Assembly (NCBI RefSeq): GCF_013122565.1
Contig: NZ_CP053258.1
Length of the DNA: 64,000 nt
Strand: one strand, 5' to 3'
Origin: Escherichia coli
GTDB lineage: Bacteria > Pseudomonadota > Gammaproteobacteria > Enterobacterales > Enterobacteriaceae
The notes under the pieces were generated by a model. That model was not told the origin of the DNA, made no database searches, and worked only from the letters and a program-made list of their open reading frames with translations. The translations under genes were made by a program, and so were the position numbers. Positions 29,254 to 37,455 of the stretch are shown here, piece after piece (the stretch's first letter is position 1; the number at the start of each line of letters is the position of its first letter).

Positions 29254-30507
29254 ATGTCAGGATCCAACACTGCAATCAGCCGTCGTCGTTTACTGCAAGG
29301 CGCGGGCGCCATGTGGCTATTGAGCGTAAGTCAGGTCAGTCTGGCTGCGGTCAGCCAGGTCGTGGCGGTGCGCGTCTGGCCTGCGTCCAGCTACACCCGT
29401 GTGACGGTAGAATCAAATCGTCAGCTGAAATATAAGCAGTTCGCGTTGAGTAACCCGGAACGCGTGGTGGTGGATATCGAAGATGTAAACCTGAACTCGG
29501 TACTCAAGGGGATGGCGGCACAAATTCGTGCAGACGACCCGTTCATCAAGTCGGCGCGCGTCGGGCAATTTGACCCGCAGACCGTACGCATGGTTTTTGA
29601 ATTAAAGCAAAACGTAAAACCGCAGCTGTTTGCCCTTGCGCCGGTCGCCGGGTTTAAAGAGCGTCTGGTGATGGACCTCTATCCGGCCAATGCACAGGAT
29701 ATGCAGGACCCGCTGCTGGCGCTGCTGGAGGATTACAACAAAGGCGACCTCGAAAAGCAGGTGCCGCCAGCGCAAAGTGGTCCACAACCGGGTAAAGCAG
29801 GGCGCGATCGTCCGATTGTCATTATGCTTGACCCTGGCCACGGTGGCGAAGACTCCGGTGCGGTGGGGAAATACAAAACGCGCGAAAAAGATGTGGTATT
29901 GCAAATAGCTCGCCGTTTGCGCTCTCTGATCGAGAAAGAGGGCAATATGAAGGTGTACATGACGCGCAATGAAGACATCTTCATTCCGTTGCAAGTGCGC
30001 GTAGCAAAAGCCCAGAAACAGCGTGCTGACCTGTTTGTCTCTATCCATGCCGACGCCTTTACCAGTCGCCAGCCGAGCGGTTCCTCGGTGTTTGCGCTCT
30101 CAACCAAAGGCGCAACCAGTACTGCGGCAAAATATCTGGCACAAACCCAGAACGCCTCGGACTTGATTGGTGGCGTGAGCAAAAGCGGTGACCGCTATGT
30201 CGACCACACCATGTTCGATATGGTGCAGTCGCTGACCATTGCCGACAGCCTTAAGTTTGGTAAAGCGGTGCTGAATAAGCTCGGTAAAATCAACAAGCTG
30301 CATAAAAATCAAGTTGAACAGGCCGGGTTTGCCGTACTAAAGGCACCAGATATTCCCTCCATTCTGGTCGAAACGGCGTTTATCAGTAACGTTGAGGAAG
30401 AGCGTAAACTGAAAACGGCGACCTTCCAGCAGGAAGTTGCGGAGTCTATTCTTGCGGGGATTAAAGCGTATTTTGCCGATGGGGCGACGCTGGCGAGAAG
30501 GGGATGA
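29254..30507 (+). CDS. amiC: N-acetylmuramoyl-L-alanine amidase AmiC (Tat-exported)
   Basis: Start at [21 protein letters not shown] (twin-arginine signal), ATG 29254; amidase_3 domain; 417 aa. Confidence 0.9.
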
Positions 30508-30682
30508 TGTTTTTAATTTATTCAATGAATTTATGTTTCATTGAATAAATATTATTTACATAAATGTTGAACGATGGTTTTGTGACTGCTGTCGAATATT
30601 TGAATATCGGCTTAAAAAATAAGCCTGCCATCTCTTTTATTAAGCACAATTCCGTGTAAGGTATACGCATTAGTTAATTATC

Positions 30683-30754
30683 TTGTAACTGTTAAATCAG
30701 GCAAGGCAATGTTTGAAGTAATTATTACTTCTGACATGCCTTGCCTTTTTTTTT
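30683..30754 (+). promoter_or_regulatory. RAT-like sequence overlapping an intrinsic terminator (antitermination leader)
   Basis: TCTTGTAACTGTTAAATCAGGCAAGGCAA resembles bgl/sac RAT elements (TTGTTACTG...CAGGCAAAACC); it overlaps the 5' arm of a long imperfect hairpin (30698-30746) followed by a 9-T run; RBS GGAG and ATG 30766 follow immediately. Confidence 0.6.
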
Positions 30755-30765
30755 GGAGCCATGGA

Positions 30766-31590
30766 ATGATCATCGAAAAAGTCATGAACAATAATTGTGT
30801 ACAGGCATCGGTGAACGGACAGGAGGTTATCATTTCTGGGCCTGGCGTTGGTTACAATAAAAAATATGGTATGTCGGTCCCTGAACATCCTGCAAACCGG
30901 ATTTTTTATGTCAGAAATGAGCAAAAAAATAAACTCTACAAATTGATTGAGCATGTGGGTATTGAGTATATTTTTGTTGCCGAAAAGATAGTGCATTATG
31001 CGGAGAGTAATCTCGAAAAAAAACTCAATCCATCGCTACTACTGATTCTTGCTGATCACATTTCGAATGCAATATCCCGAGTCGTCTCAGGCATACAAAT
31101 TAATAATGTTTTCCTTGAGGAAATCAAAGCGTTGTACAAAGCAGAGTATGCAATAAGTCGTGATGCATTAACAATCATTAATGAGCAATTTAGCGTTCAA
31201 CTACCGGATGATGAGATTGGTTTTATAGCATTGCATATTTTAAATAATTATGAGAATTCAGTTGATTATGAATCAGTACGGATTATTGAGCTGTCTCAAA
31301 AAATCACGGAGCTTATTGAAGTAGTTTATAACAGAAGAGTGGACAGAAGTTCATTTAACTACTCCAGATTTATGATGCACCTTAAATATTTTTCTAGTCG
31401 TGTGTTATGTAATGAAAAAATAAAACAGAAAAATATTGGTGATATCTATGAGCAGTTTCTTGAAAAAGATTTTCAGTTACAACGTGCCATTCATGAAATT
31501 GAAAGATATCTGTACGCAACTTTTAAATATGATTTGATTCTGGAAGAAAAACTATATCTTTCTATTCGCATCAAAGTATTAATGGACTAA
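30766..31590 (+). CDS. BglG/LicT-family transcription antiterminator (CAT RNA-binding domain plus two PRD domains)
   Basis: Start at MIIEKVMNNNCVQASVNGQEVIISGPGVGY (CAT-domain pattern) with RBS GGAG 8 nt upstream; PRD-like histidines (LILADHISN, IALHILNN); about 274 aa; AT-rich codon usage. Confidence 0.75.
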   Translation: MIIEKVMNNNCVQASVNGQEVIISGPGVGYNKKYGMSVPEHPANRIFYVRNEQKNKLYKLIEHVGIEYIFVAEKIVHYAESNLEKKLNPSLLLILADHISNAISRVVSGIQINNVFLEEIKALYKAEYAISRDALTIINEQFSVQLPDDEIGFIALHILNNYENSVDYESVRIIELSQKITELIEVVYNRRVDRSSFNYSRFMMHLKYFSSRVLCNEKIKQKNIGDIYEQFLEKDFQLQRAIHEIERYLYATFKYDLILEEKLYLSIRIKVLMD

Positions 31591-31621
31591 TTATACATAA
31601 CATTTTCATGAGATAACCCGT

Positions 31622-33202
31622 ATGAAACAAAAGAAAGCCTGGAGTTTTTTTCAGAGCCTGGGGAAGGCATTTATGTATCCCATCGCTCTGTTAAGTGTAT
31701 GTGGTATGATGTTAGGGCTGGGAAGTGGTTTAGCCAGCGATGATATGGCAAAATTAATTCCAGTGTTGGCTATTCCGTTAATTAAAACCATACTTGATTT
31801 TATTGTTAGCCTTGGTTTGTTTGCCTTCGTTAATTTACCTGTATTGTTTGCGATAGCTATACCTTTGGGATTATTAAAAGAGAAAGATGATAAAGCCTAT
31901 GGCGCTTTTTCTGGCTTAATTGGCTTTATGGCGATGCATCTTGGAACGAACTTTTATCTTAAACAGCACGACTTATTGGTAGCTGCTGACCAAATGTCGA
32001 CACATGGGCAAACCATCATACTCGGGATCCAGTCATACAATACCAGCGTGTTGGGTGGGATTGTGGCAGGGTTATTAGTCGCCAGCATGTATAAAAAGAT
32101 CGTTAACTTACGTATTCCTGAATCATTAGGGTTTTATAGTGGCCCACGCCTGGTGCCTATCATTACACTGATTGTGATGAGTGGATTTGGTCTGATCATT
32201 CCTTTTATCTGGCCGCCATTTTTCAATCTTTTCATGCTCATTGGTCACTGGATTTCAACTTCCGGTCCTGTTGGTTATTTCTTCTATGCTGTTGCCGAAC
32301 GCGTGACGATACCTTTTGGCTTAAATCACTTGGTGACATCAGTTTTCCGCTTTACCCCAATCGGCGGATCGGCAGTGATTGGCGGTGAAGAGTATTACGG
32401 CACCCTGAACATGTTTATGGCATACGTCAAAGAGAATGCGGTCATTCCGCTGGATTTGGCGGGGAAAATGGAGCAGGGCAAACTGATGATTCAGTATGGT
32501 CTGGCTGGAGCCGCGCTGGCGATGTATCGCACTGCTCATGCTCAAAACAGAAGGGCTATCAAAGCATTGCTGATTTCCGGTGTGCTCACGGTAATTATTG
32601 GCGGCGTCAGCGAGCCGATTGAATTTCTGTTCTTATTTGTCAGCCCGCTGTTGTTTGTCTTCCATGCCTTTATGAATGGATTGGCTAACATGGTTCTGCC
32701 ATATATGGGCGTGAAGATGGGCTTTACTGGCGATCTGATTCAATTTATTAGCTTTGGTGTCTTACGTGGCACAAGAACGGGATGGCCATTAGCGGTATGT
32801 GTTGAAGTGGCTTATTTCTTCATTTATTACTTTGTGTTCCGTTGGACCATTCTCAAATTTAACCTGATGACTGTAGGCCGTGAAGAGTCCAGTCCTGTCA
32901 CGCTGAACGCTCACGAAGAAACTGCAATAGCTAACATCCCAGTTCATGATAAATCAGAGTTGCAGGCAGCGGAGCAAATGGTTAAGGCTCTGGGTGGTAA
33001 AGAAAATATTAAATCACTGGATAATTGTGTAACTCGTTTGCGTTTAACTATCGCGGATATGGGATTGATAGATGAGGCTGCAATAAAAAGGGCCGGAGGA
33101 ATTGCGGTTGTGAAACTTGATCAAAATACCTTACAAGTCATTATCGGTACAAAAGTCATCGCACTACGTCGGGATATGGATAACTACATGGGGATATGTT
33201 GA
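31622..33202 (+). CDS. PTS EIICB component, glucose/maltose (MalX-like) family
   Basis: 526 aa; N-terminus FFQSLGKAFMYPIALLSVCGMMLGLGS and C-terminal EIIB motif SLDNCVTRLRL closely resemble MalX/PtsG as I remember them; no EIIA domain. Confidence 0.8.
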   Translation: MKQKKAWSFFQSLGKAFMYPIALLSVCGMMLGLGSGLASDDMAKLIPVLAIPLIKTILDFIVSLGLFAFVNLPVLFAIAIPLGLLKEKDDKAYGAFSGLIGFMAMHLGTNFYLKQHDLLVAADQMSTHGQTIILGIQSYNTSVLGGIVAGLLVASMYKKIVNLRIPESLGFYSGPRLVPIITLIVMSGFGLIIPFIWPPFFNLFMLIGHWISTSGPVGYFFYAVAERVTIPFGLNHLVTSVFRFTPIGGSAVIGGEEYYGTLNMFMAYVKENAVIPLDLAGKMEQGKLMIQYGLAGAALAMYRTAHAQNRRAIKALLISGVLTVIIGGVSEPIEFLFLFVSPLLFVFHAFMNGLANMVLPYMGVKMGFTGDLIQFISFGVLRGTRTGWPLAVCVEVAYFFIYYFVFRWTILKFNLMTVGREESSPVTLNAHEETAIANIPVHDKSELQAAEQMVKALGGKENIKSLDNCVTRLRLTIADMGLIDEAAIKRAGGIAVVKLDQNTLQVIIGTKVIALRRDMDNYMGIC

Positions 33203-34410
33203 TGGATATTTTTAATACCTCAATTTCTCGTAAAGGAACATATTGCACACAATGGGACTTTTGTGAAGACAGATTTGGTGTAAAAGATGTATTACCATTC
33301 TCTATTTCAGATATGGATCTTCCGATACCGGAAGCTATCATCAGAACATTAAAAAAACGTCTGGAACACCCGATTTTAGGGTACAGTCGTTGGCAGCATG
33401 ATGACTATCTGAATTCGATAGTCAATTGGTATCATCAACAATATAAAACAGAGATTCAACCAGAATGGATCACCTATAGCCCAAGCGTGATGTATTCAAT
33501 ATCTAAGGCAATAGAAATATTGACATTGAATGGAGATAATATTCTCATTTTCACGCCTGTTTATAACGCATTTTATGATGTGATTAAGCATAATGGTCGA
33601 AACATGCTAACAACCTCTTTGATGAAAGAAAATGGGAGAGGCTACGTTATCAACTGGCAAGACTTTGAGCTTAAAATTAAAAGCGCGAAGATGGTGTTAT
33701 TATGTAATCCTCATAACCCGACAGGAACGGTCTGGTCGGAAGACGATCTTCACAGAATCGCAGCATGCTGTGCAAGGCATAATATTTGGTTATGTTCAGA
33801 TGAAATACATAGTGATTTTGTTTTTAATCATAGTTTCACGTCAGCGCTAACAATAAAAGATGACAAAGTGGTGGTGTTTAATTCGATTTCGAAAACATTT
33901 AATGTTCCTGCGCTAACCGGATCATATATGATTTCAACTGACGATAATTTTAATCATAAGTTCAGAACGATATCGAGGTATCGCGATTTTGTAAACTCCC
34001 CATCAGTACTGAATGTAATTGCGACCATTGTTGCCTATAATGAATGTGAAGAATGGTTAAAGTCATTAAAGGTACATATTGCCTCTAACATTCAATTTAC
34101 CTTGCAGTATTTAAATGAAAATATTCCGGAATTGATCGTATGGCCAGCTGAGGGCTGCTATTTTTCGTGGGTTGATTGCTCGGCCCTTGGTTATCCCTTT
34201 GATAAATTTTACCGTCGATTAATTAACGAAGGGAGAGTAGGTATTATGGCGGGGCATGTTTATGGTACTGAAGGAGAGGGCTATCTGCGTCTTAATCTGG
34301 CCTGCAGTCGAGAAAAATTATATATGGGGCTTGCGCGCCTTGCGAGTGTAATTAAAAATATTAATCAGGAAAAAGAAAATGAACAATACGGATCTTATCC
34401 ATCTTATTAA
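33202..34410 (+). CDS. PLP-dependent C-S lyase / aminotransferase class I-II, MalY/PatB-like
   Basis: N-terminus GTYCTQWDF..DRFG..DVLPFSISDMD closely parallels MalY (GTWCTQWDY..DRFG..LLPFTISDMD); start taken at ATG 33202 (TGATG overlap with the PTS stop, GGGGA 7 nt upstream); alternative ATG at 33196. Confidence 0.78.
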   Translation: MDIFNTSISRKGTYCTQWDFCEDRFGVKDVLPFSISDMDLPIPEAIIRTLKKRLEHPILGYSRWQHDDYLNSIVNWYHQQYKTEIQPEWITYSPSVMYSISKAIEILTLNGDNILIFTPVYNAFYDVIKHNGRNMLTTSLMKENGRGYVINWQDFELKIKSAKMVLLCNPHNPTGTVWSEDDLHRIAACCARHNIWLCSDEIHSDFVFNHSFTSALTIKDDKVVVFNSISKTFNVPALTGSYMISTDDNFNHKFRTISRYRDFVNSPSVLNVIATIVAYNECEEWLKSLKVHIASNIQFTLQYLNENIPELIVWPAEGCYFSWVDCSALGYPFDKFYRRLINEGRVGIMAGHVYGTEGEGYLRLNLACSREKLYMGLARLASVIKNINQEKENEQYGSYPSY

Positions 34411-34975
34411 ACATTTTATGCGTAACGAACATAAAGCAGTAGAAGAGGTTATTGATTCCCCCCTTTCGGAAGTCGCGAATTTAATTAAAATATTACAATC
34501 TTGCCAGGGAAAAGTTGTTTTTATTGGTGTTGGGAAATCTGGCATTATTGCCAGAAAACTTGCTGCAACATTTGCCAGCACCGGAACTCCCTCGTTTTTT
34601 GTTCACGGTACGGAAGCGGTACACGGCGACCTTGGGATGGTGGCGAAAGACGATGTTGTTATTCTTATTTCAAACAGTGGTGAGACGGCGGAAATCCTGG
34701 CGACACTGCCTAGTTTGAAAAAAATGGGTAATTATTTGATCTCTTTTACCCGCAGTCATCACTCATCGCTTGCGATAAGTTGTGATTTATCTGTTGAAAT
34801 CCCCGTCAAAAGTGAGGCGGATAATTTAGGTTTAGCACCGTCATGCTCGTCTACTGTTGTTCTGGTTGTTGGTGATGCGGTGGCGCTTGCACTCTCTGAA
34901 TTGAAAAAATTTACTCGTGCTGATTTCGGCTTATATCATCCAGGAGGTGCACTCGGCATTAAAGCAAATTCATAA
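34379..34975 (+). CDS. SIS-domain sugar-phosphate isomerase (KdsD/GutQ-type SIS without CBS domains; candidate arabinose-5-phosphate isomerase)
   Basis: 198 aa; VFIGVGKSGIIARKLAATFASTGTPSFFVHGTEAVHGDLGMV matches the N-terminal SIS domain of arabinose-5-P isomerases; no CBS tail; RBS AGGA upstream; overlaps the upstream gene by 32 nt. Confidence 0.75.
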   Translation: MNNTDLIHLIKHFMRNEHKAVEEVIDSPLSEVANLIKILQSCQGKVVFIGVGKSGIIARKLAATFASTGTPSFFVHGTEAVHGDLGMVAKDDVVILISNSGETAEILATLPSLKKMGNYLISFTRSHHSSLAISCDLSVEIPVKSEADNLGLAPSCSSTVVLVVGDAVALALSELKKFTRADFGLYHPGGALGIKANS

Positions 34976-35046
34976 TTTCAAAGTATAAATACAGTAACCG
35001 GTCACGCCATCTTTTGGGGTGGCGTTCATTGAAGTGAGTGTCAGCT

Positions 35047-35994
35047 ATGAAAAATGTTCTGGTCACCGTCCCCAGCTTTTCAGCACGCTGTGTTTCCGCC
35101 AGCAAGTTGCTAAGAGAGAATAATTTTAACCTTATTATTAAGAATAATGTGGAGCATCTGCTTAAATCAGAATCCACTGCATTACGAGAATCTATTTGCG
35201 CGGTCATCGCCGGAAAAGATTGTTACCAGGCGGACACGCTATCATTGCTGCCTGGTGTGAGAATAATATCGAGATTCGGGACGGGGATAGATAATATTGA
35301 TCTTCGTGCAGCACAACAATCCGGTATTGTAGTCAATAATGCGGTTGGGATTAATTCAAATGCTGTCGCGGAATTTATCATTGGACTTATCTTCGCGAGC
35401 ATGAGAAATATTCCTGGCAGCTATCATGCGATGCAAAATGGCTACTGGGGTGAGTCGCATGGCTATGAATTACAAGGCAAACGGATTGGCCTGGTTGGCT
35501 ACGGCAATATAGGTAAAACCCTGGCAAAAAGGTTATCCGGTTTTGATGTTGAGCTTTTAGCTTATGACAAACAACCCGATTATCAGGTTGCTGACAAAGT
35601 TGGAGTTCAGTTTGTATCAATTGAAGATATCTTTATGCAGTCGCATGTCATCATTGTTCTTTTGCCTTTTTCTCCTGAGCTGGAGAACTTCATTAGTCAT
35701 AAATATTTGTCGATGATGCGCAATGGTGCTCTAATCATCAATGCCGCAAGGGGAAAGTTGCTGGATGAGGGCGCTTTACTACAGGTGATTGAAGAACGAA
35801 ATGTGTTTGCGGCGCTGGATGTGTTTAGCTCTGAACCGTTGGCGCAATTTAGCCCACTGCTACATGCCAAAAATATCATTACAACGCCGCATATTGCGGC
35901 CGCCACCGTTGAGTCATACCAGCAAACCGGTACACACGTTGCCCAGTCGATAATTGATTACTTCGCAGGAAGGGAGATAAAAAACGTGTTGTGA
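35047..35994 (+). CDS. D-isomer-specific 2-hydroxyacid dehydrogenase (NAD-binding)
   Basis: About 315 aa; Rossmann motif GLVGYGNIGKTLAKR; family-typical TTPHIAAAT near the C-terminus; alternative GTG start at 35038. Confidence 0.75.
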   Translation: MKNVLVTVPSFSARCVSASKLLRENNFNLIIKNNVEHLLKSESTALRESICAVIAGKDCYQADTLSLLPGVRIISRFGTGIDNIDLRAAQQSGIVVNNAVGINSNAVAEFIIGLIFASMRNIPGSYHAMQNGYWGESHGYELQGKRIGLVGYGNIGKTLAKRLSGFDVELLAYDKQPDYQVADKVGVQFVSIEDIFMQSHVIIVLLPFSPELENFISHKYLSMMRNGALIINAARGKLLDEGALLQVIEERNVFAALDVFSSEPLAQFSPLLHAKNIITTPHIAAATVESYQQTGTHVAQSIIDYFAGREIKNVL

Positions 35995-36020
35995 GTTCAG
36001 CGAACGAAGTTTTTAAATAC

Positions 36021-36056
36021 AAAAAAACCGCAATTTGTGGAACACATTGCGGTTTA
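36021..36056 (-). terminator. Intrinsic terminator downstream of tRNA-fMet (minus strand)
   Basis: Minus-strand hairpin AACCGCAAT / ATTGCGGTT followed by a 7-T run, immediately 3' of the tRNA. Confidence 0.6.
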
Positions 36057-36062
36057 TCAGCA

Positions 36063-36139
<77 letters not shown>

Positions 36140-36357
36140 CCACCCCGCGTCCGTGGATGCGCACTATACTCCGCTCGCGTTTTCATGCAACCTTTTTTTT
36201 ACCCCGATCACGGTTCTGGCATGATTTTGAACAAAAACAAATCACTAAAGCCTATTTTTTGTGCAAAATTTGCGTCAGGGAGAGGCTGCTCATTTCATTA
36301 AACGCGGCGGTTTGTTATCTTCGTTGCGCCTTATTTTTTAACCTGAAGAAGAGAACA

Positions 36358-37455
36358 ATGAAAGGACGTTGGGTAAAGTACCTTCTTATGGGCACGGTTG
36401 TGGCAATGCTTGCCGCCTGCTCTTCCAAACCAACCGATCGCGGACAGCAATATAAAGACGGGAAATTTACCCAGCCTTTCTCTCTGGTGAACCAGCCAGA
36501 TGCCGTTGGCGCGCCGATTAACGCCGGTGATTTTGCTGAGCAAATTAACCATATCCGTAATTCGTCACCGCGTCTGTATGGCAACCAGAGTAATGTTTAT
36601 AACGCGGTGCAAGAGTGGCTGCGCGCAGGCGGTGATACCCGCAATATGCGCCAGTTCGGCATTGATGCCTGGCAGATGGAAGGTGCCGACAACTATGGTA
36701 ACGTGCAGTTTACAGGCTATTACACGCCGGTAATTCAGGCGCGCCATACCCGCCAGGGCGAGTTCCAGTATCCGATTTACCGTATGCCGCCAAAACGTGG
36801 TCGTCTGCCGTCTCGTGCGGAGATCTACGCGGGGGCATTGAGCGATAAATACATCCTCGCTTACAGCAACTCTCTGATGGATAATTTCATTATGGATGTG
36901 CAGGGTAGTGGGTATATCGACTTTGGTGATGGCAGCCCCCTTAACTTTTTCAGCTATGCAGGGAAAAACGGTCATGCCTATCGCAGCATTGGTAAGGTGC
37001 TGATCGACCGTGGCGAAGTGAAAAAAGAAGATATGTCGATGCAAGCGATTCGTCACTGGGGCGAAACACACAGTGAAGCCGAGGTTCGCGAGCTGCTGGA
37101 ACAGAACCCGTCTTTTGTCTTCTTTAAACCGCAATCTTTTGCACCGGTGAAAGGGGCAAGTGCGGTGCCGCTGGTTGGTCGTGCTTCTGTTGCCTCTGAT
37201 CGTTCCATTATTCCGCCAGGTACTACCTTGCTGGCAGAAGTGCCGTTACTGGATAATAACGGCAAATTTAATGGTCAGTACGAACTGCGTCTGATGGTGG
37301 CGCTGGATGTCGGTGGCGCAATCAAAGGCCAACACTTCGATATCTATCAAGGGATCGGGCCGGAAGCCGGACACCGTGCAGGTTGGTACAACCACTATGG
37401 ACGGGTTTGGGTACTGAAAACGGCTCCGGGCGCAGGTAACGTCTTTAGCGGCTGA
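36358..37455 (+). CDS. mltA: Membrane-bound lytic murein transglycosylase A
   Basis: Start at MKGRWVKYLLMGTVVAMLAACSS (lipoprotein signal, ATG 36358), 365 aa; the track ORF from 36037 is an upstream extension that would overlap the tRNA. Confidence 0.92.
   Translation: MKGRWVKYLLMGTVVAMLAACSSKPTDRGQQYKDGKFTQPFSLVNQPDAVGAPINAGDFAEQINHIRNSSPRLYGNQSNVYNAVQEWLRAGGDTRNMRQFGIDAWQMEGADNYGNVQFTGYYTPVIQARHTRQGEFQYPIYRMPPKRGRLPSRAEIYAGALSDKYILAYSNSLMDNFIMDVQGSGYIDFGDGSPLNFFSYAGKNGHAYRSIGKVLIDRGEVKKEDMSMQAIRHWGETHSEAEVRELLEQNPSFVFFKPQSFAPVKGASAVPLVGRASVASDRSIIPPGTTLLAEVPLLDNNGKFNGQYELRLMVALDVGGAIKGQHFDIYQGIGPEAGHRAGWYNHYGRVWVLKTAPGAGNVFSG

Follow-up and report, generated by a model that had tools for sequence, protein, structure and literature searches.

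The 'malX' marker locus of Escherichia coli: a transporter and PatB-type lyase operon with predicted control by antitermination

A MalX/MalY-like gene pair in the 64-kb stretch of Escherichia coli DNA analysed here (the window) belongs to a locus that is already known, namely the paf operon (pafR-pafP, c3405-c3410) of CFT073, which is the 'malX' PAI marker of ExPEC. The evidence makes it likely that this operon is antiterminated, that its EIICB transporter is fed by a Crr-type EIIA, and that its lyase acts as an enzyme and not as an anti-activator of MalT. What hundreds of ExPEC virulence-typing studies have scored as 'malX' is not the maltose malX but the transporter of this operon with its antiterminator.

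Five genes make up the operon, a PTS module that was acquired horizontally and is of Firmicute-like origin. It lies on a low-GC island of 5562 bp (positions 30509-36070) flanked by amiC and a tRNA-Met gene, the boundaries of which were set by alignment with the island-less site of O157:H7. GC content is 0.39-0.42 within the island versus ~0.52 in the flanks. The island takes the place of the 72 bp that separate amiC from metV in island-less E. coli and is carried by 1689 of 5426 complete E. coli genomes (31%), which makes it accessory, whereas native malXY belongs to the core (5423 of 5426). No flanking repeats were seen at the island edges in the alignment to the island-less site. Simple insertion at the tRNA with direct repeats was considered and rejected, given the replaced spacer and the lack of such a repeat. 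The following features were assigned.

30680-30708, plus strand: RAT-like antiterminator binding site AUCUUGUAACUGUUAAAUCAGGCAAGGCA, overlapping the terminator 5′ arm (from sequence)
30699-30754, plus strand: leader intrinsic terminator, a long hairpin followed by nine U (from folding)
30766-31590, plus strand: pafR-type PRD antiterminator of the BglG/LicT family, 274 aa (NCBIfam LicT model, PDB matches)
31622-33202, plus strand: pafP-type PTS EIICB of the glucose family, 526 aa (BLASTP, NCBIfam models)
33202-34410, plus strand: PatB/MalY-family PLP-dependent C-S beta-lyase, 402 aa (TIGR04350)
34379-34975, plus strand: SIS-only phosphosugar isomerase, KdsD/GutQ-like without CBS domains, 198 aa (NCBIfam, PDB)
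35047-35994, plus strand: D-isomer-specific 2-hydroxyacid dehydrogenase, phosphoglycerate-dehydrogenase-like, 315 aa (NCBIfam)
36028-36057, plus strand: candidate operon terminator (CCGCAAT..ATTGCGG then TTTAT), read off the sequence
36073-36149, minus strand: tRNA-Met (metV family) at the right island edge (ARAGORN; Rfam tRNA, 61 bits)

The genes thus run in the order PRD antiterminator, EIICB, lyase, SIS-only isomerase and 2-hydroxyacid dehydrogenase, with the SIS gene overlapping the 3′ end of the lyase gene by 32 nt. The CFT073 paf locus consists of the same five genes, likewise ordered and located at the same chromosomal site beside amiC, and its leader carries the same RAT site and terminator. 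Protein identity between the two loci is 94.5% for the antiterminator, 97.5% for EIICB, 85.6% for the lyase, 98.0% for the SIS protein and 96.8% for the dehydrogenase, with dS of 0.34-0.50 in the first three genes. In CFT073 a type VI secretion cluster separates the operon from the tRNA, whereas the window has none there, and the window lyase is extended at its C-terminus by 11 aa, in a stretch overlapping the SIS gene. Genes c3405-c3410 have been described as a PTS set retained by UPEC inside PAI-CFT073-metV (PMC2831201), and pafR and pafP as metV-island genes needed for mouse UTI (PMC8882828).

The leader of the operon carries the elements expected for control by antitermination. The RAT-like site occurs only once in the 64-kb window, where 0 matches are expected by chance, and the same element is present upstream of all paf-type operons examined, from Citrobacter to Clostridioides difficile. 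The terminator that it overlaps has a fold energy of -30.3 kcal/mol (z -4.8), and none of 200 shuffled sequences folds as well. Compensatory changes in the stem are found in Citrobacter and Enterobacter (GGCAAGGCA/TGCCTTGCC versus GGCAAGACA/TGTCTTGCC), and the arrangement of RAT site and terminator is kept in all paf-type loci examined. A consensus scan missed this terminator because the scan has a loop limit of 8 nt, while folding recovered it; the candidate terminator at the far end of the operon likewise went uncalled in the consensus scan because its loop is 11 nt. An Rfam E-value scan of positions 30300-36400 returned the tRNA only, with no match to the RAT families.

The product of the first gene aligns over its full length (residues 1-270) with the NCBIfam LicT model at 230 bits and matches LicT PRD and CAT structures in the PDB, including the CAT-PRD1 region. 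Pfam hits to CAT_RBD and PRD are recorded for its Citrobacter orthologue, which is 78% identical. Three of the four PRD histidines (LicT H100, H159, H207 and H269) are kept in the window antiterminator, within ADHI, ALHI and MHLK. The fourth, at the LicT H269 position, is Arg in E. coli and Citrobacter and His in other paf-type regulators, so that control of the E. coli and Citrobacter proteins may differ from that of LicT. Antitermination by PafR of CFT073 is reported by Baum et al. 2014, as summarised in PMC9981650 and PMC8882828.

The overall plan resembles those of BglG/BglF and LicT/BglP, where a regulator with CAT-PRD1-PRD2 architecture is paired with a PTS permease that serves as sensor, and where RAT and terminator overlap. 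The terminator is followed first by the regulator gene, an order also seen in the bgl operon. The island departs from both systems in having a permease of the glucose/maltose family without an EIIA, and a regulator that scores below every curated equivalog cut-off and has Arg in place of the LicT H269 histidine.

The transporter aligns with K-12 MalX over its full length (42% identity, E 5e-145 by BLASTP), with its EIIB cysteine, Cys469, encoded at 33026-33028 within the motif SLDNCVTRLRL. It falls below the cut-offs for the MalX family (538.7 versus 632.2 bits for TIGR02004, and 526.1 versus 665 for NF007509). Within the paf clade EIICB proteins are 62-97% identical, versus 40-45% to MalX. 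Only IIC and IIB models match the protein (residues 6-521), and neither an EIIA domain in EIICB nor an EIIA gene in the island was found. Because it has no EIIA of its own, we infer that EIICB takes its phosphate from a host Crr-type EIIA; in Firmicutes, the orthologous operons encode an EIIA of the Crr type, with 41% identity to Crr.

The lyase scores 368.5 bits on TIGR04350 (PatB family; cut-off 340), with residues 4-384 of 402 covered; its reading frame may start at 33196 or 33202, and the length of 402 aa is counted from the RefSeq-type start. It is 37% identical to K-12 MalY (full-length BLASTP, E 2e-100); identity is 50% with C. difficile MalY and 66% with the paf-type lyases of Citrobacter. 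The PLP lysine, K231, is encoded at 33892-33894. Equivalents of MalY Y121, D201, H204, S230, S232, K233 and R372 are all kept in the lyase, a set restricted to residues that were confirmed as invariant in the alignment. In the same alignment, MalY positions 175 and 241 are T175 and T241. Judged from its sequence, the protein is predicted to be a PatB-type PLP enzyme with its catalytic site intact, either a C-S beta-lyase or a cysteine desulfhydrase, and C-S lyase activity is plausible. Its C. difficile orthologue is a cysteine desulfhydrase in vitro, acting on free cysteine, according to work cited in PMC6143707. A metagenome protein 55% identical to the lyase (P0021) is a chimera with an E. 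coli-like first half and a second half from another PatB, and was left out of the second alignment.

An earlier note on this DNA, made from its letters, had proposed a horizontally acquired pair closely parallel to MalX and MalY, governed by a PRD antiterminator rather than a MalI-type repressor, with an EIICB devoid of EIIA. The two ORFs do lie at the positions that it gave. The acquisition is borne out by the GC contrast with the flanks, the occurrence in 31% of genomes and the replaced amiC-metV spacer. Its account of regulation agrees with the PRD gene directly upstream of the pair and the RAT site and terminator in the leader, and no MalI-like gene was found near the island pair. The lack of EIIA holds for both the protein, which shows only IIC and IIB, and the island. 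The kinship with MalX and MalY stands: at 42% and 37% identity these are paralogues far beyond chance, but the paralogy is moderate, with no 'close parallel'. Both of the motifs that the note had quoted are present, including GTYCTQWDF..DRFG..LPFSISDMD at the lyase N-terminus, although the lyase motifs are not specific to MalY because they are invariant across the whole PatB family.

Comparison with other loci places the island pair in a clade separate from MalXY, with its nearest counterpart outside enterics being CD3027-CD3031 of C. difficile. All 11 paf-type loci counted have a PRD gene, EIICB, lyase and SIS gene, while the 62 MalXY-type loci counted have neither a PRD gene nor a SIS gene. 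The K-12 malI-malX-malY locus shares with the island an EIICB without EIIA followed directly by a PatB-family PLP lyase. It differs in having a divergent LacI-type MalI in place of the PRD antiterminator and RAT/terminator, whereas the island has additional SIS and dehydrogenase genes and no MalT-contact patch (see below).

The C. difficile operon consists of genes for an antiterminator, malX, malY, a phosphosugar isomerase and EIIA-Glc. It shares with the island the order antiterminator, EIICB, lyase and SIS, at identities of 36%, 68%, 50% and 52%, respectively. Unlike the island, however, it encodes its own Crr-type EIIA and lacks a dehydrogenase. The RAT and terminator, present as four tandem 104-bp copies, are placed after the regulator gene and ahead of EIICB, and its antiterminator keeps the fourth PRD histidine where the window has Arg.

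The SIS counterpart in CFT073, c3406, is reportedly an arabinose-5-phosphate isomerase (attributed to Mosberg et al. 2011). The match of the window protein to the NCBIfam KdsD and KpsF models is confined to their N-terminal halves, with its residues 30-195 aligning to positions 36-201 of the 328-position KdsD model, and the PDB entries 5UQI/5VHU are almost identical to it (E 6e-123 over 198 aa). Among the versions of the operon, those of E. coli and Citrobacter alone include the dehydrogenase gene, which is an enteric-specific addition.

The anatomy of the locus suggests how these parts may work together. Transcription would start in the leader and normally end at the hairpin and its run of nine U. 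When a sugar is under transport, EIICB would cease to phosphorylate the PRDs of the antiterminator, and the antiterminator, acting as described for antitermination in the literature, would then bind the RAT over the 5′ arm of the terminator to allow read-through of the five genes. EIICB is predicted to import and phosphorylate a glucose-family sugar with phosphate drawn from Crr-type EIIA, the lyase would act as a PatB-type enzyme, and the SIS protein would serve as the phosphosugar isomerase of the operon.

A rival proposal, which we regard as possible but doubtful, couples the lyase chemically to the transporter. EIICB might deliver a phosphorylated sugar-amino-acid or sugar-cysteine conjugate that is degraded by the lyase, the SIS protein and the dehydrogenase, such that the operon encodes a complete catabolic pathway for a compound of host or dietary origin. 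The proposal draws on the gene neighbourhood: of the 80 species loci scanned, 71 have an EIICB gene immediately upstream of the lyase gene and in the same orientation. Represented among them are Bacillota, Fusobacterium, Brachyspira, Vibrionaceae, Enterobacteriaceae and alphaproteobacterial MAGs, with at least three regulator types in use (MalI, RpiR and PRD). Within the paf clade the SIS gene always follows that of the lyase, and all genes are under purifying selection. However, adjacency by itself is no proof of a common substrate, and we know of no such substrate from decades of work on MalXY. The SIS enzyme is reported to act on a pentose phosphate, which suits it poorly to a route for hexose conjugates. 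Moreover, the C. difficile lyase works on free cysteine in vitro, as cited in PMC6143707.

The same neighbourhood also invites the speculation, which we think rather unlikely, that EIICB and PatB-type lyase form an ancient two-gene unit spread across phyla, whose regulators have been swapped repeatedly and whose lyase acts on the cargo of the transporter. If this were true, the paf version, having an isomerase and a dehydrogenase as well, would be the fullest form of an undescribed catabolic pathway, its substrate would explain the purpose of MalX and MalY in E. coli, and the ability to bind MalT would have been gained late, within the E. coli lineage. The recurrent adjacency of transporter and lyase is a lead, and only a lead, on the physiological role of MalXY-type pairs.

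A mainly sensory locus is improbable. In such a case EIICB would sense a host signal, the antiterminator would act on distant virulence or biofilm transcripts, and the enzymes would be passengers. Baum et al. 2014 reportedly found that the paf promoter was silent in all in vitro conditions tried, and that over-expression of PafR changed distant genes; the paf system may therefore be more sensory than catabolic. According to reviews of that work, PafR expression alters virulence, biofilm and motility genes, and pafR and pafP mutants are attenuated in mouse UTI (PMC8882828, PMC9981650). Nevertheless, the leader of the operon itself holds the only RAT-like site in the 64-kb window. From Clostridioides to E. 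coli, moreover, the enzyme genes strictly accompany the regulator, and they are under purifying selection (dN/dS of 0.13 for the lyase).

The earlier note had suggested that the island lyase might function like its paralogue MalY, binding MalT and so repressing the maltose regulon upon induction of the operon; this is very unlikely. The idea is attractive. In its favour, lyase and MalY share a full-length fold and 37% identity, the best PDB match of the lyase is MalY itself (1D2F/8BOB, 301 bits), and every host has a native MalT. We assessed it by a residue-based test of the interface. The MalY residues that contact MalT are A84, C181, D182, E185, S218, N219, A221 and R222, of which A84, C181, E185, S218, N219 and A221 were found functionally important in screens (PMC10427625). 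At these positions the window lyase carries E, E, D, H, L, T, K and D and thus keeps one of eight, and in the CFT073 allele all eight differ. Zero to four are kept in other PatB-family lyases, which puts the window lyase at the background level of the family.

The changes at this patch include the charge reversals R222D and A221K, and the salt bridge of E185 is lost. MalY of Vibrio furnissii, which has just D182C and S218V, fails to repress (PMC10427625). Even MalY orthologues that are 72-73% identical keep just zero to three of the eight residues, and the patch therefore appears to be confined, among the sequences sampled, to E. coli MalY. Since the MalT-binding surface of E. coli MalY is absent, the lyase is unlikely to be a MalT anti-activator, though it might in principle bind MalT in another mode, and cross-talk between the island lyase and MalT is dropped as unsupported.

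That the pair is what remains of a transferred operon in decay, and has lost its function, can hardly be credited. Of the five proteins, the lyase does differ most between the two E. coli allele classes (85.6% identity), and some database records show frameshifted lyase-SIS fusions, but we reject this reading because dN/dS is 0.04-0.16 across the five genes, indicating purifying selection, and all five ORFs are intact in both the window and CFT073, and in addition the catalytic residues are invariant and at least 80% of the island is found in 1686 genomes.

The operon is the locus scored by marker PCR, albeit as a divergent allele. The RPAi f/r primers for malX of Johnson & Stell 2000, as printed in PMC12058657, match CFT073 pafR and pafP exactly and give a product of 922 bp, whereas they have mismatches at 8 of 22 and 4 of 22 positions to the window allele. 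This pattern of exact and mismatched priming identifies the window operon as the same locus in divergent form. With 8 and 4 mismatches, the classic marker PCR would probably score this strain as negative. The window belongs to the minority allele class, with 261 genomes at 99% or more versus 1422 at 90-95%, and this second class (261 of 5426 complete genomes) is probably missed by the classic primers, so that PCR surveys are likely to under-count the locus outside phylogroup B2.

The window is E. coli chromosome in which the island lies between recD-argA-amiC and tRNA-Met, mltA, tcdA, csdE, csdA, and its GC content falls to 0.39-0.42 at 30.5-36.1 kb, compared with ~0.52 in both flanks. Alignment to the island-less O157:H7 site places its boundaries at 30509-36070, where the island replaces the 72-bp amiC-metV spacer. 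Five open reading frames, all in one orientation, occupy the low-GC stretch:

30766-31590, PRD antiterminator, 274 aa
31622-33202, EIICB, 526 aa
33202-34410, PLP lyase, 402 aa
34379-34975, SIS-only isomerase, 198 aa
35047-35994, 2-hydroxyacid dehydrogenase, 315 aa

RefSeq labels these genes as PRD protein, PTS EIIC, MalY/PatB protein, KpsF/GutQ isomerase and phosphoglycerate dehydrogenase. A horizontal origin of the EIICB-lyase pair, as put forward in the earlier note, holds as a descriptive interpretation. A single tRNA-Met gene (36073-36149) separates the island from mltA in the window; tandem arrays of three are found in K-12-like strains, CFT073, KSC207 and O157:H7 SS17. Just inside the island's left boundary, 5′ of the leader, is a perfect 12-bp inverted repeat (30519-30549; TTATTCAATGAA ... 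TTCATTGAATAA, spacer 7 nt), which could be a protein-binding site or an insertion relic. The last 32 nt of the lyase gene (34379-34410) are also the start of the SIS gene, read in another frame, and databases contain several lyase-SIS fusion proteins of 550-592 aa from E. coli and Shigella. These presumably arise from a 1-nt indel within the A-rich overlap, and the records could represent genuine variants or errors of sequencing.

The locus has been described before, as paf or c3405-c3410 of uropathogenic strain CFT073, and 1689 of 5426 complete E. coli genomes carry the island. CFT073 has the same set of five genes adjoining amiC, but a type VI secretion cluster lies between this set and the metV tRNAs. 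The SIS protein is nearly identical to PDB 5UQI/5VHU (E 6e-123, 198 aa), and its CFT073 counterpart, c3406, was reportedly shown by Mosberg et al. in 2011 to be an arabinose-5-phosphate isomerase. A 2010 paper (PMC2831201) lists genes c3405-c3410, which belong to PAI-CFT073-metV, as a 'PTS system, maltose/glucose specific' retained in UPEC. The names pafR and pafP were given to the first two genes. Reviews of Baum et al. 2014 (PMC8882828, PMC9981650) place both in the metV island, describe PafR as an antiterminator and state that pafR/pafP mutants show attenuation in mouse urinary-tract infection. The RPAi f/r primers of the ExPEC 'malX pathogenicity-island marker', whose sequences are printed in PMC12058657, match CFT073 exactly, one in pafR and the other in pafP, 922 bp apart. 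The EIICB gene of the window is thus an allele of the long-used malX marker gene.

The earlier note placed the EIICB and lyase genes correctly, quoted their motifs accurately and described them as a second MalX/MalY-like pair. Alignment confirms paralogy, with 42% identity between EIICB and K-12 MalX (523 residues, E 5e-145) and 37% between the lyase and K-12 MalY (387 residues, E 2e-100). The word "second" is also correct, since native malXY is found in 5423 of the 5426 complete genomes. The quoted lyase motifs are invariant throughout the PatB family and so do not point specifically to MalY; the lyase is 50% identical to C. difficile MalY, versus 37% for the E. coli protein.

Using the lyase alignment to scan one genome per species yielded 80 loci, 71 of which have an EIICB gene immediately 5′ of the lyase in the same orientation. 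With the C. difficile (L004) and Citrobacter (L007) reference loci added, the 82 loci form two clades and a remainder of nine loci with no adjacent EIICB. The 11 paf-type loci have an EIICB with 62-97% identity to that of the window and 40-45% to MalX; a PRD antiterminator is always present beside it, as is a SIS gene. Their hosts are E. coli, Citrobacter, one Enterobacter, Enterococcus termitis, C. difficile, a Clostridium, Massilicoli and Solobacterium. In the 62 MalXY-type loci, EIICB is 53-87% identical to MalX and neither the antiterminator nor the SIS gene is ever present; the regulator is MalI in gammaproteobacteria (18 loci) and others elsewhere. In Paenibacillus larvae (L088, 4416-8043), a MalXY-type pair without MalI is followed by an RpiR-type regulator (HTH_6 plus SIS), a third regulator class on the same two-gene unit. 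The linkage of EIICB to a PatB-type lyase across phyla is the most interesting residue of this analysis. It hints at a common, as yet undiscovered, substrate, a speculative reading of low probability.

The window EIICB consists of IIC and IIB domains only, lacking an EIIA domain as the earlier note had observed, and there is no EIIA gene among the island's genes. The note's suggestion that the transporter would borrow host Crr gains support from the Firmicute paf-type operons, which encode their own EIIA with 41% identity to E. coli Crr.

The 258-bp leader includes a RAT-like sequence, AUCUUGUAACUGUUAAAUCAGGCAAGGCA, at 30680-30708, whose 3′ part also serves a long hairpin (30699-30746; -30.3 kcal/mol, z -4.8) as its 5′ arm; nine U residues follow the hairpin. 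The RAT core occurs once in the 64-kb window, with no occurrence expected by chance, and all paf-type operons recovered have this RAT-plus-terminator unit in front. Substitutions in the stem are compensatory, with GGCAAGGCA/TGCCTTGCC in E. coli versus GGCAAGACA/TGTCTTGCC in Citrobacter, and the Enterobacter stem differs again. The regulator is a full-length match to LicT, with all but one of the four PRD histidines retained. In E. coli (window 31555-31575, residues about 264-270, LSIRIKV) and in Citrobacter, Arg occupies the position that corresponds to LicT His269, the second histidine of PRD2, whereas orthologues from Enterobacter, Enterococcus, Clostridioides, Clostridium, Massilicoli and Solobacterium have His there. 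Antiterminator control of the operon, as proposed earlier, is well supported by this anatomy, with activity taken from the literature. In C. difficile, four tandem 104-bp copies of the unit (92% matches) lie between the regulator and EIICB genes (L004, 5974-6392). In this unusual multi-gate design, read-through would need four antitermination events in succession.

Against the PatB C-S lyase model (cut-off 340) the lyase reaches 368.5 bits; it retains the PLP lysine K231 and has equivalents of MalY Y121, D201, H204, S230, S232 and R372. PMC6143707 cites its C. difficile orthologue as a proven cysteine desulfhydrase whose gene shows the strongest up-regulation in biofilm. Comparison of the window and CFT073 alleles indicates purifying selection on each of the five genes (dN/dS 0.04-0.16; lyase 0.13). 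On these grounds the lyase is plausibly a functional enzyme, with predicted C-S lyase activity.

The earlier note also proposed that the lyase cross-regulates the maltose activator MalT, and this idea finds no support. In the cryo-EM structure of MalT-MalY, MalY makes contact through A84, C181, D182, E185, S218, N219, A221 and R222, six of which are functionally important according to screens, and V. furnissii MalY, which has only D182C and S218V, is unable to repress (PMC10427625). At these eight positions the window lyase aligns E, E, D, H, L, T, K and D, including charge reversals, such that one of eight contact residues is kept (none in the CFT073 allele). This is the family background, as other members scanned keep 0-4 of the eight. 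Even the MalY orthologues of Enterobacter and Siccibacter malI-malX-malY loci (L060, L080, L083, L084), at 72-73% identity, keep 0-3. The surface that forms the contact patch is variable, and among the sequences sampled E. coli MalY alone has it intact. Cross-regulation of MalT by the island lyase therefore appears very improbable from its residues, and repression of MalT by MalY may itself occur only in E. coli and the relatives closest to it.

The island occurs as two allele classes, with 261 genomes at least 99% identical to the window and 1422 at 90-95%. CFT073 belongs to the second class (92.6% DNA identity), and its most diverged protein relative to the window is the lyase (85.6% identity). 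Divergence is mosaic: dS is 0.34-0.50 for pafR, pafP and the lyase gene (30766-34410), and 0.09-0.13 for the SIS and dehydrogenase genes (34379-35994), which resemble the flanking core genes (0.09-0.21). The operon's 5′ half thus has an older history than its host. The RPAi f/r sites in the window (31467-31488 and 32367-32388) have eight and four mismatches, respectively, and malX-marker PCR would probably type the window strain as negative and miss the 261-genome allele class.
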